Assembly: GCA_052055015.1 (NCBI GenBank)
Contig: JBQJIT010000070.1
Length of the DNA: 35,849 bases
Strand: one strand, 5' to 3'
Origin: Malassezia furfur
Lineage: Eukaryota
Position numbers and translations under genes: made by a program. Positions 5,594 to 34,366 of the stretch are shown here, one piece after another. Numbering within the stretch: position 1 is the first letter of the stretch; every line of letters begins with the position of its first letter. The notes below the pieces were generated by a model. That model searched no databases. It saw only the letters and a program-made list of their open reading frames with translations, and had not been told where the DNA came from.

Positions 5594-5605
5594 GATGTCT
5601 CGGGT

Positions 5606-5633
5606 TGAGTCACCATCTTCGCGACGTCACGTG
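5606..5633. promoter_or_regulatory. Candidate Gcn4/AP-1 site (TGACTCA on the minus strand, 5606-5612) and E-box GTCACGTG (5626-5633) in the divergent LYS2 spacer
   Basis: Exact motif matches in the 51-nt gap between divergent ATGs at 5593 and 5645. Function is inferred. Confidence 0.4.
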
Positions 5634-5644
5634 CCTCTTTGGTG

Positions 5645-6412
5645 ATGGTGGGCGGCCCCGACGCGTCCAGCGGGTGGTGGCCGTGGGCCCACAGTGGCGG
5701 TGCGTCGCGCGCCGAGCGCGAGGCGAGCATGCCAGCCCATGCAGCCGATGCACATGCGCCGGTGCAGGACGTCGCACTCCCCGTGCCGCCGGAACGCAAC
5801 GTGCCGCACCTACCGCCGTACGAGGAGCCCAAGGAGCCCCCGCTCACGGTCCACTTGCCGCTCAGCACATTGCTGGTTTCGTGTGCCTTTGGTATTGGGT
5901 TTGCATCGGGCGTGCTGGGCGGTGCGCGTCGTACCGCGCTCGTCTACCTGGCTGAAAATGCACACCGATTGCCGCGCACTGTCCAAGGATGGTACTTTTA
6001 CAACAAGACAAAGTACTACCGCATGATCCTGGGGGGCGTTCAGCACGGCGCACAAACAGGACTGCAACTCGCGGGATGGACTGCCGGATTCTGCCTGTTG
6101 GACGTCATGGCCGAGCATGGGCGGCAGCGCTGGATGCTTCGGCGCCCGGTGCCGGCGTTCAACGACCGTGCGGAGCGGCCCCTGACGTCTTACCTTGGGC
6201 ATTGGTCGGACGGTGCCCTTGCGGGCTCCGCCACGGGGCTCATCGCCGCAATTACTTGTACGTCCCATGCTAACGCAGTCCGCTTCTCCCGACCTGTTTG
6301 GCTTCGCGCCGTGTTGCTGGGCGCTGCAGCAGGCGGCCTCACGGGCGCCTTGCGCGATGTGCGTCAATCCATTTTGGAACAGAGCGACCCCGGACGGCCG
6401 CACATGATCTAA
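5645..6412 (+). CDS. Conserved fungal multi-pass membrane protein, Tim17/Tim22/Tim23-like, probably mitochondrial
   Basis: Gly-rich TM segments and the fungal motif LAENAHRLPRTVQGWYFYNKTKYY. Probable in-frame 21-nt intron at 6258-6278 (GTACGT...GCTAAC.CAG). Confidence 0.75.
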   Translation: MVGGPDASSGWWPWAHSGGASRAEREASMPAHAADAHAPVQDVALPVPPERNVPHLPPYEEPKEPPLTVHLPLSTLLVSCAFGIGFASGVLGGARRTALVYLAENAHRLPRTVQGWYFYNKTKYYRMILGGVQHGAQTGLQLAGWTAGFCLLDVMAEHGRQRWMLRRPVPAFNDRAERPLTSYLGHWSDGALAGSATGLIAAITCTSHANAVRFSRPVWLRAVLLGAAAGGLTGALRDVRQSILEQSDPGRPHMI

Positions 6413-6413
6413 C

Positions 6414-6794
6414 CTACGCACGGTTGCCGGCAGCGACGCGCGCCTCGGCTTCCGAGTAAAACTGCTTCTGGCGCTCGTCCAACACGCGCCGTTTGTTGAA
6501 ATAATCCACCTGTATTAGCTTAGAACCTACCCAGCTCTTAGCACAATTCCCCTCGTATTCGTCTCGCAGCGGCGTGCACGGGTCGTTCTTGCGTTCGTCG
6601 GCTGCTTTTTGCGCGCGCTCTGCTTCAGAGCGAGGCGGATCGCGAAATGCGCCACGACCCAGAGGACCAGGCGTGCCCGACATGTCGGTTCCCGGTGGCG
6701 CAAAAATACCGTTTTTCGTTAGACAAGCATAGTACACGTCGCGGCTCTCCCAGCACCGCTGGCGACTGCTTCGCGACACGCCCGATTGCGACAT
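6414..6794 (-). CDS. COA6: Cytochrome c oxidase assembly factor 6 (COX6B-like CX9C...CX10C protein)
   Basis: RQRCWESRDVYYACL...CTPLRDEYEGNCAKSW. Removing the 21-nt intron at 6510-6530 restores CAKSWVDYFNKRR. Confidence 0.85.
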   Translation of the reverse strand: MSQSGVSRSSRQRCWESRDVYYACLTKNGIFAPPGTDMSGTPGPLGRGAFRDPPRSEAERAQKAADERKNDPCTPLRDEYEGNCAKSWVGSKLIQVDYFNKRRVLDERQKQFYSEAEARVAAGNRA

Positions 6795-6841
6795 GGTCCA
6801 AGCGAGAAGCCTCGGCCGACAGAACAAGCACACCGACACCC

Positions 6842-7784
6842 ATGCGCGCGGGGTCGTCCGACAGACCGGGCGAGCCGTCCAACTCGCTTCCTAGCCGCGC
6901 AGCAGAGGCTAGCGCTAATGTGGGCAGCCGGTTCGTTGGAAAGCAGGATCAAACCGAGGACTCGCTCAAAATTGAGACCGTAGGGCTGGTCCGTCTCGAG
7001 GATTTCCAGCGTAAGCGCGAAGAGCTTCTCGAAGATAAGGAATATGCTTCAGAGCGTGACGCAGAACTACGGTATGCTGCATAGCTCACACAGAGCGAAG
7101 AAGCGCGAGGAGAGGCGCAAGAAAGGACGAAAGGCACAGGCAAAGCTGTCCTTCTCGCTGGACGAGGAGGAAGAGGAAGACCTGCTGCCGTTGCCAAAAC
7201 GCATCCGGGCTGACAAGGACAAGAAAAATGTCAAGGACCCAAGCGTTGACACATCATTTCTTCCGGACCGGGAGCGCGATGCGGAGGAGTTGCGACTCCG
7301 AGACCAACTCAAGGATGAGTGGCAGCAGCAGCAGGAACAACTCAAGAGAGAAGAAATGGAAGTCACCTACTCATTCTGGGATGGCACTGGTCACCGCCAT
7401 TCGGTGAAATGCCGGAAAGGCGATTCTATTGCCGACTTTCTCGAGCGATGCCGCCAGCAGCTTCACCAATTACGCCATCTGCGTGCTGACAATCTGCTCT
7501 ATGTGAAGGAGGATCTCATTATACCGCATCACTATACCTTCTACGATCTAATTGTATCCAAAGCGCGCGGCAAATCTGGTCCTCTTTTCCACTTTGATGT
7601 GCATGATGACGTGCGGCTTCTAAACGACTCTTCTGTGGAAAAGGACGAATCACATGCAGGTAAGGTCGTTGAGCGTGGGTGGTACAACCGACACAAGCAC
7701 ATATTCCCTGCAAATCGCTGGGAGGTATACGATCCAGACAAAGATTACGGCGCGTACCGTTACGCCGACCGCGCAGCGCCCTAG
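6842..7784 (+). CDS. XAP5: XAP5/FAM50 family nuclear protein
   Basis: [10 protein letters not shown] in exon 1. [50 protein letters not shown] and [10 protein letters not shown] in exon 2. The exons are joined by a 22-nt intron at 7072-7093. Start codon uncertain. Confidence 0.92.
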
Positions 7785-7821
7785 CCCGGGGGAGGTGGTT
7801 CCGTGCGCCATAGTACTCCAC

Positions 7822-7836
7822 TTTTTTTTTTTTTTT
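7822..7836 (+). repeat. T15 homopolymer, poly(dA:dT) tract
   Basis: 15 consecutive T between the XAP5 stop and the SUA5 start. It is the only long homopolymer seen in the window. Confidence 0.9.
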
Positions 7837-7920
7837 AGATTCGCAGCTTCGGCAGACCACTGCATGCCCATAGCGGCTCGGCGGTTTGCACACATTTCAT
7901 TGCAAAGGCTTGGTCATTGT

Positions 7921-9300
7921 ATGCAGAAAATGACAACCTCGATCCTTCCTGTTCCAAAATCCGGGCCAGATTTCGGCATCACATTTGACGAGCAGCCCGG
8001 GAAGCCCGTGCGTGTGCACATCAACTCGGACGTGGCGCAACAGAGCTTAACCACCGCAGCGCAGCACCTCGCTGCAGGTGAACTGGTGGCCTTTCCCACA
8101 GAAACAGTATATGGCCTTGGTGCTTGCGCTGTGCGGGCTGAGGCTGCTTCGAAAATCTACCAAGCCAAGAACCGGCCGATGGACAACCCCCTAATTGTGC
8201 ATGTGAGTGACCGGGCAATGATGATGCGGCTTCTTCCGCATGGATACCACGTCAGTCGCGTCTGCGAAGTTCTCATGGATGCATTCTGGCCTGGGCCTCT
8301 CACTCTACTCTTCCCTGTCGGTACAACCGAGGGGAAGCCAAATGTCCCGACCACCGTCACATGCGGACAGCCAACTGTTGGCGTGCGCATGCCCTCTCAC
8401 CCCATTGCGCGTGCGCTGATTGCACTGGCCGATGTTCCGGTTGCTGCGCCGTCCGCTAATGCCTCAGGTCGACCATCGCCTACAAGCGCACAGCACGTGT
8501 ACACAGATCTGGCCAAGCGACATGTGCTGCGCTACATTGTGGACGGCGGCAATTGTGACGTGGGGGTGGAAAGCACCGTGGTGGATGCCGTGACGGCTCC
8601 GGGTGAGATCCACGTGCTGCGCCCAGGCGGCGTCTCTGTCGAATCGCTTGGCTCTGTGTTGCAATCCAACCACCTTTTGCGCGGCAGCCCTGAGGCTCGG
8701 AGCGACGCCGTGCAACTGCGTGTTTACGGCAAGACGCTGGAGCGCAGTGCTACTGCGGAAGAAACCCCAACAACGCCCGGGATGAAATACCGGCACTATT
8801 CTCCCGAGGCCCGTGTCGTCTTGGTCCGGTATCGCCCCCAGGCGGCGTCACTTGCCGAGGTGCTGTCATCACAACTGGCGTCGATCACCGAGGCGGCTGC
8901 TGAGGCTAATGATGCCACGGGTGTACGTCGGCGCACGGGTCATGGGCGTATCGGTGTGATGTGTGCGGTCGACTCGCCAGTCTTTACCTGTGTGTCGCAT
9001 CTGACGTCGGTGCCGCTTGAACCGTGGGCGGCATCGTCTGAGCGCGTGTCGCCCGTGGTGAACTGCGGGCCCCACCAGCTGTGTGTGTATTCACTGGGTG
9101 TGCAATCCGAGCCTGCGACCGCAGCCCAGCGGCTGTTTGACGGGCTGCGCACGCTGGACACTGACATCTCGTGGGCTGGTGAACCGTCGGCGTGCGATTT
9201 GATCCTGGTGGAAGAGATTCCAGACACCGGCATCGGGCTGGCGGTGATGAACCGGCTGCAAAAAGCTGCGACGGAGATCATCGAGGTCGGTTCTGTATAA
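7921..9300 (+). CDS. SUA5: Threonylcarbamoyl-AMP synthase (YrdC plus Sua5 domains), intronless
   Basis: VAFPTETVYGLG, KNRPMDNPLIVH, FWPGPLTLL, AAPSANASGRPSPT, GVESTVVD, PGMKYRHYSP and AVMNRLQKAA. Start at ATG 7921 or 7930. Confidence 0.95.
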   Translation: MQKMTTSILPVPKSGPDFGITFDEQPGKPVRVHINSDVAQQSLTTAAQHLAAGELVAFPTETVYGLGACAVRAEAASKIYQAKNRPMDNPLIVHVSDRAMMMRLLPHGYHVSRVCEVLMDAFWPGPLTLLFPVGTTEGKPNVPTTVTCGQPTVGVRMPSHPIARALIALADVPVAAPSANASGRPSPTSAQHVYTDLAKRHVLRYIVDGGNCDVGVESTVVDAVTAPGEIHVLRPGGVSVESLGSVLQSNHLLRGSPEARSDAVQLRVYGKTLERSATAEETPTTPGMKYRHYSPEARVVLVRYRPQAASLAEVLSSQLASITEAAAEANDATGVRRRTGHGRIGVMCAVDSPVFTCVSHLTSVPLEPWAASSERVSPVVNCGPHQLCVYSLGVQSEPATAAQRLFDGLRTLDTDISWAGEPSACDLILVEEIPDTGIGLAVMNRLQKAATEIIEVGSV

Positions 9301-9365
9301 TAAGAATCATGTATTGTACATACAGTAACTATGATGCCAATTGCATAAGGTATAGAAGTGGTTGC

Positions 9366-11207: not shown

Positions 11208-11481
11208 GGGAGGCAAAAGCTGAGTTCCAACCGTCTTGCCCACCAAGAAAAAAACCACCGAAGTACCACGCCCAAATTACAGCTATGACATCATACGTGA
11301 GGACCCCAGACCCGAGAAATTGGGTCAAACCAGGGTTCATTACATCAAGGCGACTCAGTGTGCCCTCCACCGGGCTCGGCCGCCGTCTGGTTGCGATCGG
11401 CGATGGTGCACGTGGATGGGCGGCCGGCGCCGCCTCCACACGACTGGCGCGACGGGCGCAACCGCACTGCTGGCCTCCGCC

Positions 11482-12978: not shown

Positions 12979-12996
12979 ATCCTCCACATTCCCACG

Positions 12997-14497
12997 ATGC
13001 TCCGCTCGGCTGCGCGTGGGACCGCTCGGCGGTCGTTTGGAACGCACGCAGCACGGCACCGTACATCGACGCCGGGCATCTCGACTCCGTCTACGGCTGC
13101 GGCGAGTGACGAGGACTCGGCAGCGCTTGGTCGATTCTTTTACCGCAACCGCATGGTCCAACAATGGGGCAACGTCCCCGCAAAGCGGACGACCCTGCGC
13201 CAGCTTATCCTGTTTGGGCAGTCCGCCCAACGGCATCGCGGACTGCTCATGGAGAGTGCCAACTACCTGCGTACCGAGGTCACTACGCGCATTGCTCACC
13301 GTCTGCGTGATATGCAGGCGCTCCCGTTCGTGGCCATGTCGAACGAGCAGCTCGATTCGATCTACCAGTTCTTCTGGAGCACGTTTGAGACGCTGCGGCG
13401 TATGGAGCGAATTGAAACGCTGGAACAGAATCAGGAGCTGATCAAAGTCATGACCGGCCTCCTGTCGGAACGCAAGAGCAAGCTGGCGCTCATCGCCGGA
13501 ATCAGCCGAGAGTGTGTGTACTATATGGAGCCCGAGACCGTGGACTTGTTCCTTGCGCGCATGCTCCGCTCACAGGTATCGCGTGAGGTGCTGGCCAAGC
13601 AGCACATTGCCTTGACTGCGATGCACCGCTCGGGCGAAAAGTCCAAGGGTACCAAGATCGGGATGATCGACACGGACCTGGACGTCGCCAAGTCGGTCGA
13701 GAAGAGTGCAAAGATTGCTAAGGAGTCTATCGCATCACTCAATGGATGGGATCAGGATGACCCTAGGCTCCCAGAGGTGACGCTTGACGGCGACACGGAC
13801 GTGCACATCGCCTACGTCACCGAGCATCTCGAGTTCATCTTGCTGGAGCTGATCAAAGTATCGATGCAGTCAACCATGGCGCGGTTCACTAACGCATCGA
13901 TCCGCGAAATGAGCCGGTCGCCCCCACCAGTACAGATTACGATTGTGAATGCGCCAGGGCGTGGTGATATGGTGATCCGTGTGTCTGACCGTGGCGGTGG
14001 ACTGCAGTCCGACGAGCCCTCGTTTGAGCGCCTGGAACAGGAGTACGAAGTGACTCGGGCGCGAGGGCCAATTCTGCTGCCACGCAGTGACAAGATGCAA
14101 CGCGATCCCGAGAGTGGTCTTGTCTGGTCGTTTATGAACATTGGCGAGCAGCTCGATCGGATGAACATCCAACTCGACGAGACCGAATCGATGGAACGCG
14201 CCTCGCATTCGGCATCGTCTGCTGACCCTAGCGCGTCCTACCCTGGTGGTGATGGACTGATGCGCTTGTCGGTGCTCAACATGGAGTCGAAGAACGGTCT
14301 TCCTATGTACGTTGCCCAACTAACACCAGTGTCAAGTTGTATGCCGACCTGTTCGGCGGTGGTCTCGACTTCCGGACGCTAGACGGGTACGTATCCATCG
14401 ACTTACCCCAGCTACGGTACGGACATGTATCTGCGCCTGCCCAAATTTGGCACATCGAAAGGTAGGTGCCCCGACTGACCCAGAATTGCACGAGTAA
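12997..14497 (+). CDS. Mitochondrial alpha-ketoacid dehydrogenase kinase family protein (PDK/BCKDK, Pkp2-like), possibly degenerate
   Basis: Presequence-like N-terminus, TLRQLILFG, SANYLRTEVTTRIAHRLRDMQALPF and IRVSDRGGG. Introns 14307-14329 (23 nt) and 14387-14411 (25 nt) restore GLPIVKLYADLFGG...LDGYGTDMYLRLP. A third intron at 14462-14483 (22 nt) gives the end KELHE*. Confidence 0.88.
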
Positions 14498-14517
14498 TCC
14501 AAGGCGCTCTCCGTATG

Positions 14518-15702
14518 CTATCCAATCCCTAGTGTTAGTCCGTAACATACAGTGCATGATCAGAAGCAACAGGCCGCTGATCACAAAGAACATCGACAGG
14601 AACCGGTTCGCGGCACGGTTGCGCTCTTTGGCTTTGCGAAGCTGCACGTTGCCGCTGGTGACTTGCTCGCCGTGACCAGCCGCCTCGGTCTGCAACTGAC
14701 TTGTCTGTTCGTTTTGCTCCTGGAGATGTTGCATAATGCGAGTCTGTAGTTCCGAAATATCGTGCAGTTGCTGCTCTGCATGCTGCACAGCCTGCAATTC
14801 GGATTGCAGCGACTGAATCAGCGCGGATGCTTCCTCCTCAAACAGCTGAACCTGCTCTTTCGTCAACTCTTGCGCAAGGTCGTCGCTGGCTGACTGGCTC
14901 AGTGCTCCTGCACTGCCACGCAAGTTTGTGGCCGAGACATCGCCTGTCGGCCCACTGCGCAGTACTTTCTGCGCACCATCGGCAAGTTTCTGATGGCGCT
15001 GTTGCTCGGCTTCGACGCGACGCTGCTGCAGCGTGGCTTGGACAGACGAAGCACGGGCCAACTGTTCAGAAAGGTACTGCGTCACAGCTGCATGGTATGC
15101 CGCCGTTGCATCAGATGCACTCTGCTGCCGTGCAATGGCACCACCACGCAAGAGCATCATGGGGCCCAGTGCCGAGCTCCTTGCCGAAGAAAGCGACCGG
15201 TCCACGGCCTGCTTCCGCACTGCATCAGTCACTTTCACGTACGTTTTTCGCCGCGTTCCAGTTCTTGTACACTTTCAAGACACTTTTTTATGACTAGCTT
15301 GACCTGAAAATCGATCTCATCGCGCTCGGTATCATTGAGTGTGTGGATGTGCTGCCACTTTGCAAAGGCGTCGTCGGCGGTGTGCTCTGCATCGAGGCCC
15401 GCCTCGTCACCGTCCTTCCAGTCAGTGGAAGAATATCGTCCCTTGGACGAAATGTCAAGATATGGCCGCCGGATTGCAGCGAGAAAGGTATACAGAGATG
15501 CAATTTGCCGTTTCTGATGAGCGCGTATACGTACAATTCGATAGGCCTCACGCGTCCAAGACTCGGCAGCACTTCGTTGCTTCAGCTGCGCAGCGTTGGG
15601 TTTCGGAGGGGTATCTACCTGAATGCCCTTGCTTTCACACTCGTGCAACAGTTGGCGGAACGCACTGGTGTGGTCCACGCGCGGAGGAATGGGTCCCCGC
15701 AT
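14518..15702 (-). CDS. UFE1: ER Qa-SNARE syntaxin-18/Ufe1
   Basis: N-terminal DHTSAFRQ, EAYRI, IRRPYL and LNDTERDEID. SNARE coiled coil LHDISELQ...GNVQLRKAKERN and a C-terminal TM. Introns at 15514-15534 (21 nt), 15220-15242 (23 nt) and 14529-14550 (22 nt). The frame closes at 373 codons. Confidence 0.88.
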
Positions 15703-15737
15703 GGTGATGCTCGTGGATTGCCTCCACACTACAACCC

Positions 15738-16657
15738 CTATTTCCGACGGCGTTTCTTGCCCGTATATTTTGAGTCGCGCGGCACATTCTGGGTGAGTAA
15801 AGGCACATACCGTCTTGCCTCGCGCACGGTCAAGTTCTTTTTTCCGTAGGATGTATTGCTTCACTGTCTCGCCCTTCTTCTTCTTTTTGTTCCGCTCGTG
15901 ACGGTCGTCACGTACACGGCGCTGCTCATGACGTACCACGTTGGCCTCTTCGTGTTCAAGGGCCTGGGGAAGCTGCTGCTTCACACCCTGGCCCTCACCG
16001 TTGGGGCCCACCATCATTTCACCACCGACCCAGAGGACCAGGTAAATCTTTTTCGCCTTGACTGAGTTGGGATAATCAACGACAAGACCACCACCAAACC
16101 CAGCCTTCGTTGCCTGCTGCATAATAAATTGGACCTGGTCGTCGTTCTCTGGATAGAACTGGAAGACACATCGAGCGCCGCGGGTGAGCGACGCATAGAG
16201 AGTGGTGAAAAAAGTACTCAGCCGCGCGCCGGGTGCATTGTACGACGTGTCTGCATTGCAAAGCCATTGTAGAACCGAGATACTGATCGCACCATCGAAG
16301 CTGCCAGGGCGGAACATGCATCCATGGCCTGCGTCCGCGAGCATCATATCTCCCTCCACGTCACGTTCGAGTCCCACACTTAACATGCTGGGACTGATGT
16401 CAAAGCCAACCCATTCGTAGCCTTCCTCGGTAAGGATTTCGCCCGAAAGGCCGGATCCACAACCGATGTCGAGAACGAGCGCAGGCTTCCGGTGTTCGGG
16501 AAGCGCCATGAGCTCGATTGCACGCAGCGTCATTTCTGCTTGAATCTCTTGATTGCGGGTGCTGCGTTAGTTAGGTAACGCACTTGGCCGTATACTTCCG
16601 CGCCTCTGTATCGCCATAGTAGATTTCCGGCGGCGCCTGGTGCTCTGGGCGGCTCAT
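15738..16657 (-). CDS. BUD23: 18S rRNA (guanine-N7) methyltransferase
   Basis: MSRPEHQAPPEIYY, LDIGCGSGLSG, FDGAISISVLQWLCNAD and GFGGGLVVDYPNS. Introns 16562-16583 and 15789-15810 (22 nt each) restore the C-terminal VPRDSKYTGKKRR. Confidence 0.96.
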
Positions 16658-16822
16658 GGTCGCCAAAAAAATGTTGCTGAGTAATTCGCGGTGGAGCCGT
16701 GGCTCGAGCGAGCCGTGTTGGCCGCCGTGGCGGGGGTGGTCGAGGCCGCGTTCGACACCAAGCCAGAACATTCCGGGCCAGTCTGCATGTGCAAGTCTAT
16801 GTATTTCACTAGTGCCCCATAT

Positions 16823-17719
16823 CTAGTGGCGACTAGCGCGGCCTTTAGCTGCAGCCGGCTGAGCAGGCCCCTTTCCTGGGCCCGGAGCGACGCGACCGCC
16901 CGCCGCACGTGGCTGCGCGTCCTGCACGTCTTCCGGCATCGGCAGCATGAACAGGATGACGATAGGAAGAATGTAGTACCAGTATTTTCGAAGGAAAGCC
17001 ACGAGGTCAAATGGCGCCTCGGCCTTCTTCTTCGCCTCACCCTCAGGCGTGTTCTCGTCGATCTTTTCTTTGAGACGCAACGGTCTGGGTAAGTAGTACA
17101 ACGTACGTATCAGGCACCACAGGTACACTCACGGAGACCACTGTAGAGAATCCATCAGAGTGCGGGGCCTCGCCATCGTAGATCGGGCAGGCCTGGTTGT
17201 TGTATGGCACGCGAGGCAGAATTTCGTACGTAAGGCCTACCACATAAGGAGGCGACGAAGTATCTCCGATATTGAGTGGTTGTTTGGAAAGGTGCACCTC
17301 AATGGTATCTTCCACCGGCTCTCCTGGCGGGGCACGCAGTTGACACTGGGTGAGAGCGGCTCACGTACGAGTTTGGTCATGGTCGAAATCCCCTCCTTGC
17401 CGTTCACTTTGGAGGGCCACACGTCGGCAGAGAAGGTACGCGCGTCGCCCTCAACGATCTTAATCTGGTAAAAGGCGTTTTCATCGTTCGGCGGGAAAAC
17501 CATCTCCGAAGGAATTCCCTCGTTGACAACAAGACCCTCGTCGCCGGCGACCGTAGTCGGATAGCGAACCAATGCCCGCGGTTGCCAGGGCATATTCACC
17601 TGCTTTCCATCCTCGCCGATCGTCTGGACACGATGGAGAAGTGTATACGTCTCGCTCTGTGCGGCCACGAGCGCCGCACACACGGCGCCCATCCACACCC
17701 ACCTCGGCATGATCGTCAT
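16823..17719 (-). CDS. EMC10: ER membrane protein complex subunit 10-like type I membrane protein
   Basis: Signal-peptide-like N-terminus and FLRKYWYYILPIVILFML before a short tail. Introns at 17346-17368 (23 nt) and 17085-17106 (22 nt) join three ORF fragments in frame. Start at 17719 or 17710. Confidence 0.75.
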
Positions 17720-17729
17720 TGCCACGTGT

Positions 17730-20700
17730 CTATACAACTAACCACTGTCGATACAGGCGCTGGGCGAGATGTGGAGACCCCGCACTCGCATACAACAGCG
17801 CCAGATTATAAGCGGCTTCGCGCGCCATACAGAAGCCCTGTTCAGGCCGCACATTCCCTTGTGCGAGCTCGAGGACGCGCTGATAGCGGGGGATCGCAAG
17901 GTGGGATAATCCTGCGTGAGTTAGACAACGAACCTAGGTGGTGATAGGCGCGCCCGAAATTGTATTCTGCCTCGGCACTGCCAGGTCGGAGCTGTGCATA
18001 TTGCGTGAGGAAAGCCATGCCCTGCACGATCGTGTGGTTTCGGTTGTCCACTTGACGATTCGTTGCGCGACTCAGGCATGCTACGCTGCAGAGGAGGCAC
18101 AGTAGCGGATCATCCTGCTGGAGTGCATACGCACGGAGTAGATACCCTGTGTTAGTCACGGCACGCACCCATCGCCGGCTGGTAGCTACCCGCACACAGC
18201 ATCAGATAGCCATAAAACATCTCGCTAATTGGCGACGACCGCGTCGGCACAGGCTGTACACTTGCTTCCGTCATGCGTGTCTCATCAGGATCGGCGATCG
18301 ACTCCTCAGCGTCATCGTCGTCAGCGCCCGCGATCGTCCAGCGTCCATTGCGCGCATTGATTTTAGCAGGCCGACCTGAGACAATCGCCTCCTGCGTACG
18401 CATCCGGCGCTGGTACTGCTTCGTGTTGGTGGCGCTCACAAACGCGTCGACGCCGTAGAAACCCATGCCGTTCGCGACTGATGCAATGAGGCGCAGCGGC
18501 TCATTGTGGAATTGATAGTGCGTGGGAAGCCAGCGCACAACATCAAAGGCACGCGTAAAGTTGCGCGAGTACATTGCGCATGCTTTTGGTTAGTTGGCGA
18601 CGTACCAAGCCAGCACAGATGCAAAGCCGTCTTGCGTGCCTCGGACGGCCAAACGGTGTTGGATACCATGATGTGCCGAAACAGGTCATGGATTGTGTCG
18701 TCTTCATCGCCTACCTTGGCAAGGCCCACAGCATACTGCGTAAGCAAAGCACATACCTTCATAAAGAGCAGCACCCAGTCATCAAAATCGACCGTACGGA
18801 ACGCCGACTGCTCAGGCGCGTCGTTGGACATTTCCTCCGCTGACTGTAGCGCCGCATCGTCCACGAGACGGTCGCGCAACCGCGAAAGGAGCGCTTCCGC
18901 CTGGCTATCCAGATCCAGTGCCTTGACTCGCCGGTTCCGACGGGGACGGACGACGCCACGGTATTTCGTGTAGCGCTCCTTGGGAAACAACAGTGACATC
19001 GACCTAAACGAGTCAATCAGGCGTCCGGCCACCTGCATCCATTGGCGCGTTGCATCAAACCGCTTGCGTTCACTCTCGACCGACGTTCGCGGCTCGTCAG
19101 GCGCATCAACCGACCCATCCAAAAAGACGAAGTCTGGATGCCAGAACCCTTCGACAAACACTAGCGGCTCCAGCGCAGATAGCTGCACCCACGCGAGGCG
19201 GGTCTCCTCCTCACGTTGCTGCTCGAGACGCTGGCGCTCGGCAAACGAAATGCCGGAACGTGAGCCGCGAGTCGATGCGCTTTGTGCTGCGCCTGCACCG
19301 CCTGGCGCGCCAGCCTCATTAAAGAACGACAGCGAGCTCGCCTCGTCCTCGGGCACAGGCCCTGTGGACGCGACAGGCGCAGTATGGCCCAATGTGGTGC
19401 CCTCGGTAGCGCCATCAGCTTGTCGCAGCTCATTGCGCGCCACCAGTACTTCGTTAACAAGGCGCAGGGCCTTTTCACGATCGCCCAACTCTTCGCACAC
19501 CTCTGCAAGGCCAAGTTTGACGTCAAAGTTGTCGGGGTTTGCCTCGAGGACCGCCTCGTACACCTGGGCAGCCTCGCTGGGCATACTGAGGTGCTGGAAA
19601 CACATGCCCATCTGCACGTACAGCTGTACATCATCCACCAACCCATCGTCAGCGAGCACCCGGTAGAGGTCGAGCGCGTCGCTATATTGCTGATACTCGA
19701 AGAAGCAGTCTGCCATCTCGAGGAACAGCATGGATTGATCGACCATCTCCGCATCATCCGCCAGGATGGTAAAATGCCGGCGCCCCTCGTCAAAGTCCTT
19801 GAGCATGAATCGAGCTTTGCCAAGTCGCAAGCGGACTTCGCGGTCCAAGACATGGTCAGCAGAGTCGTCCAGCTCCAAATCCTGCTGCGCATCCTCAGGA
19901 AGGTCCTCACGTGGATGCCCCCGCATCCATCGGATGGTTTGCTTTATCACCAGAATAACCTGCAGCGGCCGGCGCAGCAGGAGAAGTAGATCGGCGAGTG
20001 TGACCAGCTCATTGAGCGTGAAGTTGACCTCGGCGCGAGTCGCCTCTTGTAGTGCGGGATCCAGGTTTGGATCTGGGAAGGACACGCCACTCATGCTTGC
20101 CTGCCGCATCTTTTCGAGAATCGACACGCCCGTTTCGTACTCACCTAGTGAAACAAGCAGTGGAATCAGCTCACACAACACCTCGGCATCATAGGGTCGG
20201 ATGCGTAGGATCGCCTGGAACGCCTCCACGGCGGAACGCTGGCGTCCAGAGTCCTTGAGCATCACCGCACGGTCCCAAATCGCGTCAACGTCGTTGCGGT
20301 TCTTCTTGATGGCCTGCTGCAAGCAGTAGATCGACTGCTGCAGCAGGCCCCGCTCGCGGCTGCGACGCGCAAGAGATTTCCACTCATCGCTTGCGTTGCT
20401 CGTGAGGTGTGCACCGACAATACGGCACTGGATCGACTTCTCCTCTTCGCCGAGTTCCTCAAAGCACATTCCCAGGGTGTACCAGGCACCCTTGACTGTG
20501 GGCTCGATGCGGATCACCTCCTCGAGCCGCCGGATGGCGCCTGGCAGATCCGCCTCGACATAAGAGATATTGGCTTGCGCTAGAAGCGCGCGAACCTCCG
20601 ACGAGAGAGCCTGCTCACGGATGCGCGTTGGCTTATGTTTACGCGCGTAGCCATTAACGTCGCGTAACTCGTGGTGAAACGACTCCATCTCCTCCTCCAT

Positions 20701-20991: not shown

Positions 20992-21067
20992 AGACGCACG
21001 GTGCAAGGACCTCCACACTCGGCCGAGGCGAGGTGTCGGCGGGGGCGCCGCTTAGCGTTGGTGCACG

Positions 21068-22566
21068 ATGGAGGCGCCGCCTGCGTACCGGCGACCCGGT
21101 GAGCGGATCGCCTACTACTACGATAGTGCGTCCAACAACTTACCCAGATGACGTGGGGAACTTTTCGTACGGGTTCGGTCATCCTATGAAGCCGCATCGC
21201 ATGCGCATGGCGCACAACCTGATTGTCAACTATGGTCTGGACAAGAAGATGACCATCCTCGTACGTGCTTTTGCTCATCCAGCGTCCCAAGCGCGCCACC
21301 AAGGAGGACATGACTAAGTTTCACACCGACGAGTACATTGATTTCCTGTCGCGCGTCTCGCCAGAGACCGTGCAGGAGCTCACGGGGGATGGGACACGCT
21401 TCCTGATCGGCGAGGATTGCCCCGCGTTCGACGGCCTGTTTGAGTTTTGCACAATCTCGTGCGGTGGCTCAATTGGTGCGGCAAACCGGCTCAATGCTGG
21501 CCTGGCGGACGTCGCGATTAACTGGTCCGGCGGCCTGCACCACGCCAAGAAGCGCGAGGCGAGCGGCTTCTGCTATACCAACGATATTGTGCTCGCGATC
21601 CTCGAGCTGCTGCGCACACACATGCGCGTACTGTACATTGATATTGATGTCCACCACGGCGACGGTGTTGAGGAGGCGTTTTACTCGACAGACCGCGTGA
21701 TGACTGCCTCTTTCCACAAGTTTGGTGACTTTTTCCCCGGCACCGGCGACGTGCGCGACGTTGGTATCAAGCGCGGCAAGAAGTACGCGGTGAATGTGCC
21801 GCTGCGTGACGGGATCGATGCAGAAAGCTATGCATCCATCTTCCGTCCCGTTATCCAACACATCATGGATTGGTTCCGCCCGGGTGCCGTCGTGCTACAG
21901 TGCGGGGCGGACTCGCTGGCCGGTGACAAGTTAGGCTGCTTCAACCTCAATATGCAGGGCCACGCGGCGTGTGTTGAGTTTGTACGCTCGTTTGGCGTGC
22001 CGCTCATCTGTGTCGGTGGCGGTGGCTACACGGTGCGCAACGTCGCCCGCACCTGGGCGTACGAGACGGGGCTGCTTCTCGGCGAGCAGTTGGACAAGAA
22101 CCTGCCCTTCAACGAATATATCCAGTACTATGGCCCCGAGTACAAGCTGGACGTGCCCAAGAGCGGCATGGACAATCTCAACACGCCCGCCTACCTAGAC
22201 AGTCTGCGCACGCGCATCATCGACAACCTGCGCTCCATGCCATTTGCACCGAGCGTACAAATGCAGCATACGCCGCGTCACTCGCTCAACCCCGCGCTGG
22301 ACGACGACGAGGAAGGCGACGACGACCTCGGTGCTGACGAGCGGGTCAGTCAGCGAATGCGCGACCTGCATACCCAAGCCTTCGACGACGAGCTGAGCGA
22401 CGACGGCGAGAACGCCGACGAGCAGATCGTCGCGTACGAGTCGGACATGGCCGCGATTCGCGCACCGCCCAACTACACGCGCACGCATGACTGGATCCGG
22501 TCCGTGCATGCGCCACCGGTGGTACCATACGGCGCGCCGCCAGTGCTGCCCTACCCACCTGCCTAG
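21068..22566 (+). CDS. Class I histone deacetylase (Rpd3/Clr6-like)
   Basis: Spliced N-terminus [56 protein letters not shown] and GGGGYT are intact. Introns at 21126-21147 and 21261-21282 (22 nt each). Confidence 0.96.
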
Positions 22567-23233
22567 TTAGTGGCCGCGCTTTTTGCGCCATTCGGCGATG
22601 CCGCGGTCGAAGGTGGCACGGTCTAGGCCCTGGTTGCCGACCAGCACAAAGTGCACGCCGAGCTTGCGCTCGACCTCGGCTGCGGTCAATGCGAATGCGA
22701 GTGGCCAACCTACCATTGCGGTGCTCGTCGTCGAAAAAGACTGGTGTTAGCTGTGTACGTACTCATGTCGCGATATTCTACCCCCGATGCCTTAGCAATG
22801 TTGGCAAAGTGCGCAACCTTGGAGCCTGGGTAGATCTCAAGCTGGTCAAAAAGGTCTGCGTCAGCATCGCGCACGCACGGATCGCCTTCGTGACGTTTTT
22901 GCGCTCCGACGCGCGGCCTGTTTGCCGCGGCGGGCGGGTGTGCACCGTGTCGCCTTGATCAATCATTAGCTCTCGCAGTGCCTGGCGCGCCACAGCCGGC
23001 GCCGCAGTGCGCGACGCCGCCGCAACGTGCACGCCGCGGTCTTTCAGCTCCAGCAGGATGGACGGTACGTCGCGGAAAAACGCTAGCTTGACGCCGCTGC
23101 GGTCCACCACCTCGTTCAGTGCATCATTTCGACGCTTGAGCGGCGGATCGATGTGCGTATCTACCCAGTAAGGCCATAGCGTGTAGTCCAAGTCGAAAAC
23201 GACCGCCTTGGGCAGCGGTGCGTCGGTAGCCAT
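22567..23233 (-). CDS. MDP1: Magnesium-dependent phosphatase 1 (HAD IIIC)
   Basis: VVFDLDYTLWP and AAASRT. Splicing restores LEIYPGSKVAHF and MIFFDDEHRN. Introns at 22856-22878 (23 nt), 22741-22762 (22 nt) and 22680-22713 (34 nt). Confidence 0.92.
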
Positions 23234-23277
23234 CGAAGCTCCCGATAGCCCCCCGATCGCCTGCGCTCCGGCAGACG

Positions 23278-24892
23278 ATGAGCGGCGCCCCGCGTGCGTT
23301 TTACGAGGGTGCGTACGAGCGAGCACTACCGCACATTGAGGCGATTCGCTCACGCCTTCCGCACTTCTCGTCACCGCTGCTGCGTGTGCAGCGCGTGGGT
23401 CAGCTCGATGCCGACCTGCTTGACGAGGAGCTCACCGACCTGCTCGCGGAGCCAGTCAAGTCGGCGCTCCGCAACGTCTCTCCATCGGTGAGCACGCGGC
23501 ACGTCGACGAGATCTATGTTCTCCTGCGCCTCGTACTATACAAGTTTAGCATCTACGACCGCGGCGCGTCGTATGGTGCAATGCTGCAGAACCTCAAGTA
23601 CCGCAACGAGTGGGCACATACGTCGAACCGTACGTGACCGACGCCTGACCCAGTGCAATCGACCGCCCGTGACGCGCCGTTGCGCGCCTTCCAGCTGACG
23701 TTGTATCCTGTGCTGCGTATACTCCTACCCTATTGCTACAACAAGAGCAAGTCGTACATGAGCGACCAGGGCTACGCTGACGCACCGAGCGACAGCCCCG
23801 AATTCGTCGCGTGGTCGCTGGCGGAGCAGGGGCTGCGCGTGTACAATATCTTGGCGCTACTCAACTTTGCCGCATTCTTGTGGAACGGAAAGTACCGCAC
23901 GATTGCCGACCGCATGCTGGGCATGCGCCTCACCTACGCGAACCGTGCGCTGAATCGTAACGTCTCGTTCGAGTTCCTCAACCGTCAGCTTGTCTGGAAC
24001 GCCTTTACGGTATGTCTCGCGACTCACGCAGGAATTCCTCTTGTTCCTTCTGCCGCTTGTGCGGCCCCAGCGTCTGCTCAAGAAGCTGGCTCGGCTGCCG
24101 ACGCACCCGACAGTGCTTTCGGCTCTGCACGGTGCCCTGCCCAAAGGCATCACGCAGCGCATGAACTTGCACAAAGACCAAGAAGGGCGCGTGCGTATCG
24201 GCACCCGCAAGGAAAAGACACATTTGGGCCGCTACTTCTACCTTCCCGAAGAGTGCTGTGCACTCTGTTTCCAGCGTCTCGAACGTGCCGCAGGCGTTGA
24301 GGTTGACGTGCGCCCCGCCATTCGCACAGCGCCGCCATCGCCGCCACCGCCACCGCCACGCGTCACTATCCCTAATGCGAACCCGCTGCATGCCAGCAAA
24401 GGGCTTGTCGCGCGCCGGCGCAATCGGCAGAAAGACGGGGAAGCCGAGACACCGACAGCCGAATCGAGCGACGCCGCGCAGCGTGCGGCTGCACGCGCCG
24501 CAAAGCTTGCCGAGCGGCGCGCGGCCCGCCAGGTGCGTGCGTCGGCGCCAGCGCAGCCCACTGAGACGCGGCCGAGTCTATTGGCCGCGTCACCAAACGG
24601 GATTCGGTACCTGGATGCGCTTGCCACGACGCCGTACGTCACGCTTCCATGTGTTGATCATGGGCACGCGTGTGTTTACTGTTACTACTGCATTGCTGAA
24701 CAGCTCCTCTCGGAGAATATGGCCGACGAGCTGCAAGACCAGGGCGGTTGGGAATGCCTACGGTGTGGCGAGTACGTCTGGGGCGCGCGGCGGCGTGATG
24801 ACGTTAATGCGCCGGAACTCGAGGCAGAGACGGCCACCAAAATGGACGCGGATGCCCTGCTGGATGCACAGGTGCCCAATACACCGACGTAG
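23278..24892 (+). CDS. PEX2: Peroxisomal RING E3 ligase peroxin 2
   Basis: RVGQLDADLLDEEL, ASYGAMLQNLKY, GKYRTIADRMLG and VSFEFLNRQLVWNAFTEFLLFLLP (after splicing). Split RING CALC...PC..GHACVYCYYC...WECLRC. Introns at 23630-23653 (24 nt) and 24010-24031 (22 nt). Confidence 0.95.
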
Positions 24893-24906
24893 ATTCTGGG
24901 TATACG

Positions 24907-27354: not shown

Positions 27355-27413
27355 GGTGCAAAAAGTAGGCTTAGTCACGCCTCGTGCGCCGCCCCTGCCC
27401 CTCCTCCACAACG

Positions 27414-30503: not shown

Positions 30504-30510
30504 AGTACAA

Positions 30511-31137
30511 TTAGTCGCTCCCCGCGAGAAACTCTTGCATGGTGCGAGTCGCCGCGCGCCCTGCCGTGAGCAGCACCTGCTCGCTGTCGTCCAGGCCCTG
30601 CATGAACGCCTGCATATCGTGCGTGAGCGCCGCATCTGTCGACCGCGCGCTGGCGTCGGCCGGCGTTCGCGAAAGCAACACAGCCAGCTCGTAAATGCGC
30701 GCGACGCGGCCCACGTAGGTCTGCGGGTATGAGCGCACCACGTACCTTGGACAGCATTGCATACAGCGCGTCCGACTCAAGCAGCCGCGCGAGGCGCACC
30801 GCCAACGCGTACCAGTGGGGCAGCAGGTTGTGCAGCTGCACGCTCGTTGGACTCGCATCCAGCGCCGCACGCACGCGTGATCCAAATGCACGAGGCATCT
30901 GTATTGTGACAATCTCGCTGTGTGAGCCCGCAACACCTACTACAAGGCGAGCATGTGGGCCATCCAGTACACGAGCTCCACGCGCGTGTGCTTGTGCATC
31001 TGTGTGAGTGTTTTACGTACATCGACCTCGCCGGACTCTTCCAGGTAGCCCAGCCCAGGCACGTCCACGCCAAACGTACACGGGAGCCGCTGCGACTCGG
31101 CGAGGATCGCCTCAACGCTCCAGTAGTCGGCGTCCAT
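30511..31137 (-). CDS. PSF3: GINS complex subunit Psf3
   Basis: DYWSVEAILAESQRLPCTF...PGLGYL, VELVYWMA and FMQGLDDSEQVL. Introns at 31000-31020 (21 nt), 30918-30940 (23 nt) and 30721-30745 (25 nt). The frame closes at 186 codons. Confidence 0.92.
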
Positions 31138-31277
31138 GCGAAGGTGTTGGCACGTGGACGCGTCGCGTCGCGCCGCAGAGCGCCGACCTCCACCTGGGCG
31201 GTGGGGCCCGGCCTCGGCCGCCCTCGGCGCACGGCCCGTGCTCCGCACCGTCGTCGCATGCGCCATTGCTTGTCTAT

Positions 31278-33012
31278 CTATACAGTGTATACTTTGATAC
31301 GGTCCTCGTACGTCTGCAGTGTCGCAGGCGTAAGCGAGGCAATCTCGTCTAGCAGCGCAGGGAGGAACGTGCCCGGCCCACGCACGCCAGGCGCCTTGAC
31401 GGCGCGTTCGGCCGCGACAGTAAACGCAAACACGCCGAGTAGTGCGCCGACGAGAAGCTCACGGTGCGTGCGCGGCAGCGTTATGCGCTGCATGTCCGCC
31501 GATCCAAGCTGCACGCCGTAGATATGCATCGCACTCGCAAGGCCCGCTGCGACCATCACCCCAAGCGAGCACCCCGTCGCCGTCACGCGGCCGAGCAAGG
31601 GTGTCCCGCAGTGCGACTCGATCACGACCTCGCCATTCGTAAGATAGTCCACCTCTCCAGTGAGCAGCACCAGCGCGCCCTCCTGCATCGCAAGCTGCGC
31701 GGCAAGGTGCGCCGGACTCGACAGCGCGCCCACGCTGTCGACGCCTTGCGCCTGCGCCTCGGTAGAGCCCGCGAGCTTGCCAATCTCGGCGGCATTGCCC
31801 TTGATGAGCGTCACTTGCGTTTGGTTCAGAATGTCGTTCGCAACCTCGTAGCGGAACGGCGTCGCACCGACGCCCACTGGGTCCAGCACCACGGGCGTCC
31901 CGCGCGCATTCGCCGCTGGCCCCGCCACCGCCATGCCCTGACGCGCCTCGTTATTGATCGTCCCGATGTTGAGCACAAGCGCACGCGTCGCTTGACTCAG
32001 TGCCACGGCCTCCTCTGCCTCGTGGCTCATGATCGGGCTGGCCGAGAAAGCGAGCGCCACGTTGGCACTAAAGTACGACGAGACGTGCGACGTGATTGTC
32101 TGTACCAGCGTGCGAGGCACAGTGACGTGCGTGTCGTCTTCGGTGTGCGTCGTCGGATTGTACACGGTGTGGTGTGCCTTCAGCAGCGATGCCACCGCCG
32201 TAACCAGCTCGGCTGGGGCCGCAAACGGACTCGGCAGCGCGTGCGTCGTGAGCGACGACATTGCGATACGTGACGATTGCTCCGCCTGTGCTGCGCGGAA
32301 CGCACCGAGCGCCGCGTACAGCTCAGCGGCCGCCCGCCCTGGGTCGCGACGTGCAACAATCGCCGAAATCACCGCGAAACCGTCGGGTGCATTCTGCGAC
32401 GACGATGCGCCCATCATGGTGCGCATCACCGTGCGCAGGTTGATGCCACCGATCAGCACACATGGCATGCGCAGCCGCGCGCCGGGGGGGGCGTCCTGCT
32501 GCGACCGTGCGAGAGCCGCCACCGTCTCGCGCGCACCGTCGAGCATCATGACGTCGTCTTTGGTGACGCCGGCCTTGGACTGGGTGCCCCAGCATGGCCC
32601 GACCCCGGCATAGTCCGCATCACTGTCGAGCGCCGCACGCGCCTGCGCCGCATCGTGCACCGAGATGCCAATGAGGCGTCCCGAACCCAGGCGCCGGCGC
32701 GCCTCGGCCAACCGGGTATCGTCCTGACCAATATGAAGTCCAACGCGCTCGGGAAGTGCCGCAGCAACGTCCACGCTGTCGTTGATGACCATCGTCGCGC
32801 CATACTTGTCGCAGATCGTCAGCGAATCCTTGGCGATTTGGAGAAACTCGTCGTATTCAGCATCTTTTTCGCTGCGTCAGCGGCGCAACATACCGAATCT
32901 GCACAATCGACACATGCCCATCGCGCAGCGTCTCCTCGAGGCTCGCCAGGTAGGACACACCCTCGGGCAGCAGCTCGCGCCCCGTCACCAGGTACAGGCC
33001 GTACTCGGGCAT
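31278..33012 (-). CDS. THI6: Bifunctional thiamine-phosphate synthase / hydroxyethylthiazole kinase (ThiE-ThiM)
   Basis: YGLYLVTG, VQIREKD (across the 22-nt intron at 32872-32893), INDSVDVA and GLHIGQDD. ThiM part has ASPIMS, VVLDPVGVGAT, IKGNAAEI and VTATGCSLG. Confidence 0.95.
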
Positions 33013-33028
33013 CGTCGCGCACGGTTGT

Positions 33029-33038
33029 GTCACGTGAT
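33029..33038. promoter_or_regulatory. Palindromic E-box GTCACGTGAT (Cbf1/bHLH-type) in the divergent THI6/RSM18 spacer
   Basis: Exact motif near the middle of the 49-nt gap between divergent ATGs. The same GTCACGTG core occurs in the LYS2 spacer. Confidence 0.45.
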
Positions 33039-33061
33039 ATCATCGGCGCTCCTCTTCGCTC

Positions 33062-33703
33062 ATGCTTCGAAGCACCTGGAGCGCCGTCGCCGGCGTGCGC
33101 ATGGCGCGCGCGCCGCTCGCTCGTGCCCCGCTCATGCAACTGCGTCTAAAGAGCAGTAACGAGGGGCCCCAGAAGCCGCAGGCAGATGACTCTGCGCAGG
33201 CGAAACTCGACCAGCTCGCGAGCTTCCTCGAGAGCCAGCCCAAGGAGCAGCCAAAGCCCACGCCGCGCTCGCCCCGGGGCCAGACGCAGCGCCCAGCCAT
33301 GGCCGGTGCACGTCGCCAGGACCAGGTGGGACCGACCAAGACGTTCCAGAACGGCCAGTATTACGACCCATACACCCTCGACCCCACCAACATGACCTTC
33401 CAGCCACGCCGTCGTGCGCTGCCGCTGCTCGGCCCGTCGAAGCGCGAAGCGATGAAGCAGGACCCTATTCATATCCTCGGACTGAACCCGGCAAAGCCGT
33501 CTCTGGCCGACGACACCTACAAAAACGGGACACTGCTCTCGGAATACGTGTCGGAAATGGGCAAGATTCTGCCCCGCAACGTGACCGGCCTTACGCGCAA
33601 GAGCCAGCGGTATATTGGCAAGGCCATCCGCCGTGCGCGTGCACTTGGTATCCTGCCGGTCATGAGCCGCGGGCGCGGGTCCAAGGGTGGCGATTGGAGA
33701 TAG
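33062..33703 (+). CDS. RSM18: Mitochondrial ribosomal protein bS18m
   Basis: Arg/Ala-rich presequence and S18 domain YKNGTLLSEYVSEMGKILPRNVTGLTRKSQRYIGKAIRRARALGILP. Confidence 0.93.
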   Translation: MLRSTWSAVAGVRMARAPLARAPLMQLRLKSSNEGPQKPQADDSAQAKLDQLASFLESQPKEQPKPTPRSPRGQTQRPAMAGARRQDQVGPTKTFQNGQYYDPYTLDPTNMTFQPRRRALPLLGPSKREAMKQDPIHILGLNPAKPSLADDTYKNGTLLSEYVSEMGKILPRNVTGLTRKSQRYIGKAIRRARALGILPVMSRGRGSKGGDWR

Positions 33704-33704
33704 A

Positions 33705-34366
33705 TTAGTCGTCCTCGTCGTCCGCAGCTGCTGCCGTAGTCGGCCCCTCATGTTCAAAGTGTTCTTCGGGAAACGCATCCTCGTCCATCGCCATCTCGTC
33801 CGCGGCGTATGTATCCGGCGCTTCGTCCAGCACCGGCTGCGCCTCGACCTCGAGCGGCTCGACCTGCGCTTGTGGTGCAGGGAGATGGGTGATGACACAC
33901 TGCAAAATGTCGTCGATCTGCTCATCCGACATGCGTTGCCCAAGCTCTTCGACGAGCTGCGTAAGTACGTTGACGTACCGTGTGTAGCTCCACGACGCTC
34001 ATCGGCGCATGGTTGACCAGCTGCAGCCGCTCAGCCTTGGTCAGGCCCGGTGTGCCCTGCAGGATCTTGGCGTCGGACGGGGCATAGCCCTTGTCGTCCA
34101 GTGCCTTAAGAAACCCACTGATGTGGTGCGCCTCTTGTCGTGCACACGGTCGGTGCGCCTGCGAGAGCGATGCAATCGTCTGCGTTGGTGCATGCACGTA
34201 CCTCGAACTGGATGGTGCGGACATTGGGTGGCACGGCCTTCATCCACGCCTCCGCATCCTCGTTGTCCGATCGCGCAGCTTCGCGTTGCCGCGTCTCGGT
34301 GTCGCGCAGCAGCTGAAGCACCTCGTAATCCGACAGGAGCGCCGCCCGCGTCTTGACAATGCGCAT
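33705..34366 (-). CDS. RPC17: RNA polymerase III subunit C17/RPC9 (Rpb4 family)
   Basis: MRIVKTRAALLSDYEVLQLL and LTKAERLQLVNHAPMSVVELHTLVEELGQRMSDEQIDDIL after removing introns 34180-34201 and 33957-33978 (22 nt each). Confidence 0.92.

Follow-up and report, generated by a model that had tools for sequence, protein, structure and literature searches.

Can introns of little more than 20 nt be the ordinary introns of a fungus? The question is raised by a stretch of 35,849 nt from Malassezia furfur, a basidiomycete yeast of the skin (contig JBQJIT010000070.1 of assembly GCA_052055015.1; this whole stretch is the window referred to below), in which a first-pass annotation had reconstructed 30 short segments that begin with GT and end with AG, spanning positions 6258-34201 from first to last. 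We conclude that these segments are very probably ordinary U2-type GT-AG introns of M. furfur, shrunk to near the minimum length that can hold all three splice signals. Directly observed are the architecture of the segments, the restoration of reading frame and homology upon their removal, and their exact absence, or the presence of longer versions, in two Malassezia relatives.

Recovery and architecture of the segments

All 30 GT-AG segments were recovered in the window, with lengths of 21 nt (5 segments), 22 nt (15), 23 nt (6), 24 nt (1), 25 nt (2), and 34 nt (1). The median is 22 nt and the mean 22.7 nt; 26 of the 30 measure 21 to 23 nt, 29 measure 21 to 25 nt, and none is shorter than 21 nt. 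This length table is identical to that of the first-pass annotation, whose three quoted examples (THI6 at 32872-32893, HDAC at 21261-21282, and COA6 at 6510-6530) have correct coordinates and strands and whose description of the introns as close to a lower size limit agrees with the distribution. The 30 introns fall in 14 of the roughly 23 genes of the window, a density of about one intron per gene.

The recovery was controlled against chance in two ways. A first regular expression, composed of donor, branch box, and YAG, matched the window 33 times (25 of these at lengths of 21 to 23 nt) versus 9.9 +/- 3.3 times in shuffled versions of it; it retrieved 26 of the introns, three more being found by eye and one by a relaxed scan. 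A strict pattern, GTNNGT-N6-9-CTNAY-N1-2-YAG, was then applied to both strands and to 200 simulated sequences for each of the Markov orders 1 to 3. It has 24 matches in the window, every one of them a listed intron, versus simulated means of 0.16 to 0.30 and a maximum of 2. The six listed introns outside the strict pattern each have one element off, for example the donor, the branch box, the spacing, or the acceptor.

The introns follow a common plan: GTRNGT, a spacer of 6 to 8 nt (27 of 30), the branch box CTNAY, one or two bases, and CAG. Every intron starts with GT and ends with AG. GTACGT is the most frequent donor (15), followed by GTATGT (5), GTAGGT and GTGCGT (4 each), and single instances of GTATGC and GTTCGT; GTNNGT describes all donors but GTATGC (29 of 30), and GTRNGT all but GTATGC and GTTCGT (28 of 30). 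Of the branch boxes, 28 are CTNAY, one is TTGAC, and one is CCAAC, and YTNAY thus covers 29. The presumed branch adenosine sits at intron position 16 to 19 in 29 introns and at position 17 in 15, and its distance from the 3' end is 5 nt in 22 (range, 4 to 9); the acceptor is CAG in 28. Because donor, spacer, branch box, and CAG fill the intron, most of its 22 bases are signal, and there is no space within it for a polypyrimidine tract. The GC content of the introns is 54%, versus 62% for the window. A length of 21 nt is the product of the shortest element combinations seen, and nothing shorter is present.

From the sequence we infer that the segments are removed from RNA, that the adenosine of the box is the branch nucleotide, and that the spliceosome of M. 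furfur may be adapted to introns of this kind. Recognition would proceed by intron definition, the whole intron being recognized as one unit. U1, and later U6, would pair with the donor hexamer, and U2 would pair with the branch box only ~7 nt downstream of it. The acceptor would be the first AG, 5 nt past the branch adenosine, picked by proximity without the use of a polypyrimidine tract. Second-step factors of budding yeast, Slu7 and Prp18 among them, are dispensable where the branch-to-acceptor distance is very short, which would fit the 5-nt distance seen here. Rfam and tRNA scans of the window gave no matches, and no small nuclear RNA (snRNA) gene was found within it.

The unusual size of the segments is the only feature that suggests their removal by something other than the major spliceosome, be it a U12-type spliceosome, endonuclease-and-ligase splicing, or DNA elimination. 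U12-type introns carry a donor of the RTATCCTT type and the branch sequence TCCTTAAC, and neither form occurs in any of the 30 introns, whose termini and internal motifs are of the U2-type and not the U12-type consensus. Introns of similar size in M. sympodialis are, moreover, backed by spliced RNA-seq reads (PMC5389616). We give such routes next to no credence and return to U2-type splicing in what follows.

Reading frames, homologues, and relatives

Removal of all 30 segments leaves 14 gene models without a single internal stop, in line with the claim of the first-pass annotation that every spliced model closes its frame; exons of 11, 14, and 27 nt are among them. Retention would shift the frame in 18 cases, introduce an in-frame stop in 7, and add a clean insertion of seven residues in 5, all of them 21 nt long. 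Six of the 30 lengths are multiples of three, and one of these six introns contains an in-frame stop, although the sample is small. The peptide motifs previously cited as restored by splicing are found at or beside the junctions: QIREKD spans the junction of THI6, FTEFLLF and DGYGTD cross junctions at sites where relatives have no intron, FFDDE lies within a 27-nt micro-exon, and DSKYTG comes just past a junction.

Genes were named by Pfam searches of 144 stop-to-stop open reading frames (ORFs) and of 35 exons, and the 14 intron-bearing genes are conserved housekeeping genes with intact domains. At several junctions the profile continues from one exon into the next. Position 91 of RNA_pol_Rpb4 is the last residue of exon 2 of the Rpb4-family gene and position 92 the first residue of exon 3 (intron 33957), and the exons on either side of intron 34180 match one Pfam profile in different frames. 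Acid_PPase is continuous across the MDP1 exons (exon 1 covers its positions 2-89, exon 2 its positions 98-127), Syntaxin-18_N reaches position 53 in exon 1 and resumes at position 55 in exon 2 across intron 15514, and the peroxin profile runs to position 64 before intron 23630 and from position 69 after it. The unspliced Psf3 ORF supplies 59 residues for 52 positions of PSF3_N, exon 1 alone accounting for positions 1-30.

Alignments with individual proteins tell the same story. The spliced histone deacetylase model is gapless at intron 21126 against 11 orthologues that contain the region, and the spliced MDP1 model (195 aa) is identical at 190 of 195 residues to the 195-aa M. furfur protein P0148 and gapless against other fungal orthologues. 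When the unspliced COA6 ORF is aligned with the human COA6 chains 6nl3, 6pce, and 6pcf, a 7-residue gap opens at the intron. In THI6, residues 3-39 of exon 1 correspond to residues 9-44 of chain 3nl2_A (the top match) and residues 1-71 of exon 2 to its residues 46-115 (E value, 7e-7), residue 45 being the split codon. In all, homology or comparison with relatives backs 26 of the 30 introns in addition to frame and motif.

Comparative evidence comes from two Malassezia relatives, L001 (GC content, 51%) and L002 (57%), whose loci were found on metagenome contigs with a deacetylase exon and match the window colinearly over roughly its positions 14.5-32.5 kb. Introns were compared by alignment with 60 nt of flanking sequence and by a peptide-guided search for the best splice in each relative. 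Ten introns are absent, as an exact gap, from at least one relative: 14307, 14387, 14462, and 21261 from L001, 15220, 15514, and 17912 from L002, and 18147, 18736, and 24010 from both. The scripted comparison placed a GT-AG intron of another length at the mapped site for 17, with three doubtful (17085, 22856, and 30721). The matching introns measure 23 to 27 nt in L002 (median, 25; n = 11) and 27 to 115 nt in L001 (median, about 45; n = 14); these medians were compiled by hand, leaving out 17085 and 22856 in both relatives, 23630 in L002, and 30721 in L001, and using the 50-nt form of intron 14529 in L001 in place of an over-long 86-nt call. Introns are thus seen to be lost by exact deletion, and their spacers change freely in sequence and length.

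Two further observations concern the relatives. L002 carries intron-like elements of 23 to 25 nt at its positions 6281-6305, 8069-8093, 15515-15539, and 15764-15786, in the deacetylase, MDP1, and Psf3 genes, that the window lacks, so that intron presence and absence differ in both directions among Malassezia species. Intron length falls as GC content rises, from ~45 nt at 51% (L001) to ~25 nt at 57% (L002) and 22 nt at 62% (the window), a series of three points that may be coincidence.

The comparison with relatives also bears on a more skeptical account, in which the segments are frame-disrupting indels, assembly errors, or marks of gene decay and the spliced models an artifact of hand-fitting. 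Many alternative GT-AG pairs can indeed close frames in GC-rich DNA. Such an account, however, leaves aside that all 24 strict-motif matches fall at the proposed sites where less than one was expected, that relatives show GT-AG introns of other lengths at the same codon positions or else exact deletions, and that the segments lie in conserved housekeeping genes whose domains are intact. We consider it vanishingly improbable, and true introns remain the reading that we adopt.

Deposited protein models provide a further line of evidence. The best named protein matches are to Malassezia, and two genes match M. furfur proteins, the membrane protein at a tabulated 100% (with one mismatch read) and MDP1 at 97%. 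One deposited M. furfur annotation splices all four of the introns that could be compared, three in MDP1 (P0148) and the one at 6258 (P0122). The residues encoded by intron 6258 are missing from P0122 (248 aa) and from the homologues P0131, P0133, and P0147, and they are read through in P0121 (255 aa), an M. furfur model that is nearly identical to the window, and in several other species' models. Five of 12 Malassezia models of the membrane protein read through this intron, and four more are cut or deleted at the site. Three of four named Malassezia models of the histone deacetylase are mis-spliced or truncated, and MDP1 models of M. obtusa, M. psittaci, and others either end or leave out sequence at the introns. 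The faulty models at 21068-21282, 6258-6278, and 22680-22878 are found among P0004, P0006, P0032, P0121-P0141, P0151, P0152, P0199, P0221, and P0241. The earlier warning that such introns would trouble gene finders is thus borne out by truncated, read-through, or mis-spliced models in several species, and its concern over default minimum lengths is echoed by the annotators of M. restricta, who had to work with intron minima of 20 and 15 (PMC6473144). Gene models used in comparative genomics, proteomics, and drug-target work on these skin yeasts need to take account of introns down to a minimum of ~15 to 20 nt.

Several points weigh against our interpretation. Splicing of these segments out of the window's transcripts is deduced from DNA. 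Between 5 and 99 alternative GT-AG pairs per site also leave both frames open, so closure by the proposed pair is not unique; frame closure alone is weak proof because such pairs are so numerous at each site in GC-rich DNA. At introns 7072, 17085, 30721, and 34180, the evidence consists of frame and motif. The E values are weak for COA6 (0.001 to 0.16) and for exon 1 of THI6 (0.42). The intron lengths given for the relatives are the script's best peptide matches and are doubtful at 17085, at 22856, at 23630 in L002, at 30721 in L001, and for the 86-nt call at 14529. Finally, the five 21-nt introns are stop-free and in frame, which makes the frame test blind to their retention, and a deposited M. 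furfur model reads through one of them (6258).

This last point opens the way to a rival explanation, namely that some of these five introns (6258, 6510, 15514, 18736, and 31000) are partly retained or coding and give rise to forms with seven extra residues. Retention would bring neither stop nor frameshift. At 6258, the read-through residues are present not only in P0121 but in the models of four other relatives (three species and one metagenome sequence), and the single in-frame stop among the six multiple-of-three introns is unlike the enrichment of stops reported in ciliates (PMC5014332). All five nevertheless carry a full donor, a branch box, and CAG at fixed spacing; introns 18736 and 15514 are exact gaps in relatives; the seven residues are absent from human COA6; and at 6258, the second M. 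furfur model and three other homologues lack the residues. The inserted residues of the read-through models start with the translation of the donor site, which points to annotation error. Retention of this kind is, in our judgment, unlikely, and removal by splicing is the better account of the five as it is of the other introns.

Short introns in Malassezia and other eukaryotes

Short introns in Malassezia are not new. The first-pass annotation stated that Malassezia introns are known to be short, and this is in print: a review describes Malassezia genes as having "very short introns" (PMC7426719), and 5,350 introns with a mean length of 30 bp, 99% of them with RNA-seq support, have been reported in 4,493 genes of M. 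sympodialis (PMC5389616). The reported introns of M. restricta have a median of 30 and a mean of 37 (PMC9241646), and those of M. globosa a mean of 76 to 79 (PMC4634964). The introns of the window resemble those of other Malassezia in their GT-AG spliceosomal type, their density, and the annotation difficulty that they cause; they differ from the figures for M. sympodialis, M. restricta, and M. globosa in their median of 22, and all but the 34-nt intron are shorter than the published 30-bp mean. Little about them is novel as a phenomenon, since very short Malassezia introns are published and some of the present introns are already spliced in a public M. furfur annotation. A stated mode of 21 to 23 nt in Malassezia was not found in a literature search confined to open-licence papers and bioRxiv. 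What is possibly undescribed so far is the 22-nt mode with a floor at 21 nt, the decrease in length from one species to the next (about 45, 25, and 22 nt), and the frequent mis-modeling of deposited proteomes.

The closest parallels outside the genus each share some features and lack others. Introns of the microsporidian Encephalitozoon cuniculi are 22 to 76 nt long (PMC3629993, PMC2483917). They are like those of M. furfur in size, in the strictness of their motifs at donor and branch, in having the branch box near the acceptor, and in consisting almost wholly of signal. E. cuniculi, however, keeps no more than about 37 introns, and more than fifty spliceosome components have been lost (PMC3629993), unlike the window of M. 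furfur, with about one intron per gene. Introns of about 25 bp are reported from Paramecium, and ciliate introns with lengths in multiples of three are depleted, in-frame stops being enriched in those that occur (PMC5014332), as in introns policed by nonsense-mediated decay; ultra-short introns are also cited for chlorarachniophyte nucleomorphs (PMC3629993). The narrow length peak in the low twenties and the presumed recognition of the intron as a whole are shared with both. Unlike ciliates, M. furfur has a clear CTNAY branch box. Of the 30 introns here, 6 are multiples of three, one with a stop, a sample too small for a verdict on the ciliate pattern. Yarrowia lipolytica and some Candida species have a fixed, very short distance from branch to AG (Irimia and Roy 2008, PMC2483917), as do the introns here, but theirs are long introns in which only the 3' part is constrained, whereas in M. 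furfur the donor-to-branch distance is also minimal, the adenosine being at position 16 to 17. Ustilago maydis, of the same subphylum as Malassezia, has a median intron length of 95 nt (PMC2483917).

A bolder proposal, which we find possible but doubtful, is that no other fungus with ~one intron per gene has introns as short and as uniform as those of M. furfur, with a mode of 22 nt and a hard floor of 21 nt, and that the same introns have shrunk stepwise within the genus (~45 to ~25 to 22 nt). The floor would be set by a branch adenosine placed no earlier than intron position 16 and, as a rule, 5 nt (in one intron 4 nt) ahead of the acceptor. If true, co-evolution of the spliceosome would be implied, for example towards choosing acceptors with neither a polypyrimidine tract nor U2AF and towards a very close contact between U1 and U2. 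If it were also genome-wide and undescribed, Malassezia would form a natural and genetically tractable series for the study of minimum intron size, and systematic errors in deposited Malassezia proteomes would be flagged; M. furfur is open to transformation (10.1101/638429). A 2026 paper lists ciliates, microsporidia, and dicyemids as lineages with introns of <30 bp, and Malassezia is not named in that list, nor did a term search of the paper turn up the genus (PMC13644364); to this extent, Malassezia is under-used as an intron-rich system in which to ask how small a spliced intron can be.

Individual introns and their surroundings

Coordinates, genes, and evidence for the 30 introns of the window, with the state of each site in the relatives L001 and L002 where one is given.
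Position	Strand	Length (nt)	Gene	Evidence	Remarks
6258..6278	+	21	Conserved Malassezia membrane protein, 248 aa, weak Tim17-family likeness		In frame, stop-free
6510..6530	-	21	COA6/COX6B family	Motif and gap alignment	In frame, stop-free
7072..7093	+	22	XAP5 domain	Frame and motif; site outside L001 and L002 coverage	Donor GTATGC; joins 141-aa exon to XAP5-domain exon; if retained, stop after 4 codons
14307..14329	+	23	Mitochondrial keto-acid dehydrogenase kinase (BCDHK/PDK family)	Exactly these 23 nt missing in L001; flanking exons align
14387..14411	+	25	Keto-acid dehydrogenase kinase	L001 lacks exactly these 25 nt	DGYGTD unbroken in L001
14462..14483	+	22	Keto-acid dehydrogenase kinase	L001 intron-free, same KELHE-stop C-terminus	Precedes 14-nt last exon
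14529..14550	-	22	Syntaxin-18-like SNARE	L001 50-nt GT-AG intron at same site	Precedes 11-nt last exon
15220..15242	-	23	Syntaxin-18-like	L001 38 nt; L002 none	If retained, stop after 2 codons
15514..15534	-	21	Syntaxin-18-like	L001 47 nt; L002 none	In frame, stop-free
15789..15810	-	22	Bud23/WBS-type methyltransferase	Same site: L001 33 nt, L002 26 nt
16562..16583	-	22	Bud23/WBS-type methyltransferase	Same site: L001 43 nt, L002 27 nt	Flanking peptide scores 0.97, 0.91
17085..17106	-	22	283-aa protein, EMC10-like C-terminus	Frame and motif	Region too diverged to align (scores 0.13-0.16); 27-nt intron-like element nearby in L002
17346..17368	-	23	283-aa EMC10-like protein	Aligned site: L001 37 nt, L002 27 nt	Low protein scores, yet DNA flanks align
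17912..17933	-	22	TPR-repeat protein, 1057 aa	L001 52 nt; L002 none
18147..18168	-	22	TPR-repeat protein	Exactly these 22 nt missing in L001 and L002
18583..18605	-	23	TPR-repeat protein	Same site: L001 75 nt, L002 25 nt	Only AAG acceptor
18736..18756	-	21	TPR-repeat protein	Exactly these 21 nt missing in L001 and L002	In frame, stop-free
21126..21147	+	22	Class I histone deacetylase	Same site: L001 33 nt, L002 26 nt
21261..21282	+	22	Class I histone deacetylase	L001 exactly without intron; L002 24 nt; orthologue alignment gapless
22680..22713	-	34	Magnesium-dependent phosphatase MDP1	L001 115 nt; L002 23 nt	Longest
22741..22762	-	22	MDP1	Same site: L002 26 nt	Precedes 27-nt micro-exon
22856..22878	-	23	MDP1	Protein match and Pfam	DNA comparison ambiguous (score 0.39)
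23630..23653	+	24	Pex2/Pex12-family peroxin	L001 40-nt intron at site; L002 probably none (12-nt call ambiguous)	In-frame stop inside; if retained, stop after 2 codons
24010..24031	+	22	Pex2/Pex12-family peroxin	Exactly these 22 nt missing in L001 and L002
30721..30745	-	25	GINS Psf3	Frame and motif	Branch A 9 nt from 3' end; 24-nt intron-like element at mapped L002 site (peptide score 0.39)
30918..30940	-	23	Psf3	Same site: L001 27 nt, L002 25 nt	If retained, immediate in-frame stop
31000..31020	-	21	Psf3	Same site: L001 47 nt, L002 24 nt	In frame, stop-free
32872..32893	-	22	Bifunctional thiamine biosynthesis gene THI6	Alignment to chain 3nl2_A
33957..33978	-	22	Rpb4-family RNA polymerase subunit	Pfam profile continuity
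34180..34201	-	22	Rpb4 family	Frame and motif	Branch box CCAAC

Other motif matches were set aside. The match at 28819-28844 on the plus strand sits within the Sec10 ORF, and shorter matches nested in the introns at 17346 and 22856 were likewise rejected. A segment at 9293-9323 on the minus strand, in which a good donor, a box resembling the branch motif, and CAG are combined within 31 AT-rich nt, is found between convergent genes, ~45 nt downstream of the stop of a protein kinase gene. No ORF contains it, and it was rejected as a listed intron; it could be an intron of a 3' untranslated region or a chance match.

Genes are packed tightly in parts of the window. At 14462-14550, two convergent genes have stops 20 nt apart (one ends at 14497 on the plus strand, the other begins at 14518 on the minus strand), and their 3' untranslated regions must overlap. 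A distance of 45 nt separates the last introns of this pair, which are on opposite strands, and the last exons measure 14 and 11 nt. Packing is extremely tight at 15702-15810, where only 35 nt separate the end of the methyltransferase gene from the start codon of the gene that follows on its strand; the last intron of the methyltransferase gene lies 87 nt upstream of this codon.

Elsewhere, an intron-less gene of 1,481 aa at 1184-5626 on the minus strand resembles a nonribosomal peptide synthetase, with partial condensation, adenylation, carrier, and reductase domains, and occupies the most GC-rich part of the window (65 to 73%, versus about 58% in mid-window). A 24-nt motif match at 5017-5040 on the minus strand is in frame within this ORF, has a poor donor, and is probably no intron. 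An open frame of 584 codons at 11224-12975 on the plus strand has no Pfam match and lies where several long frames overlap on both strands.

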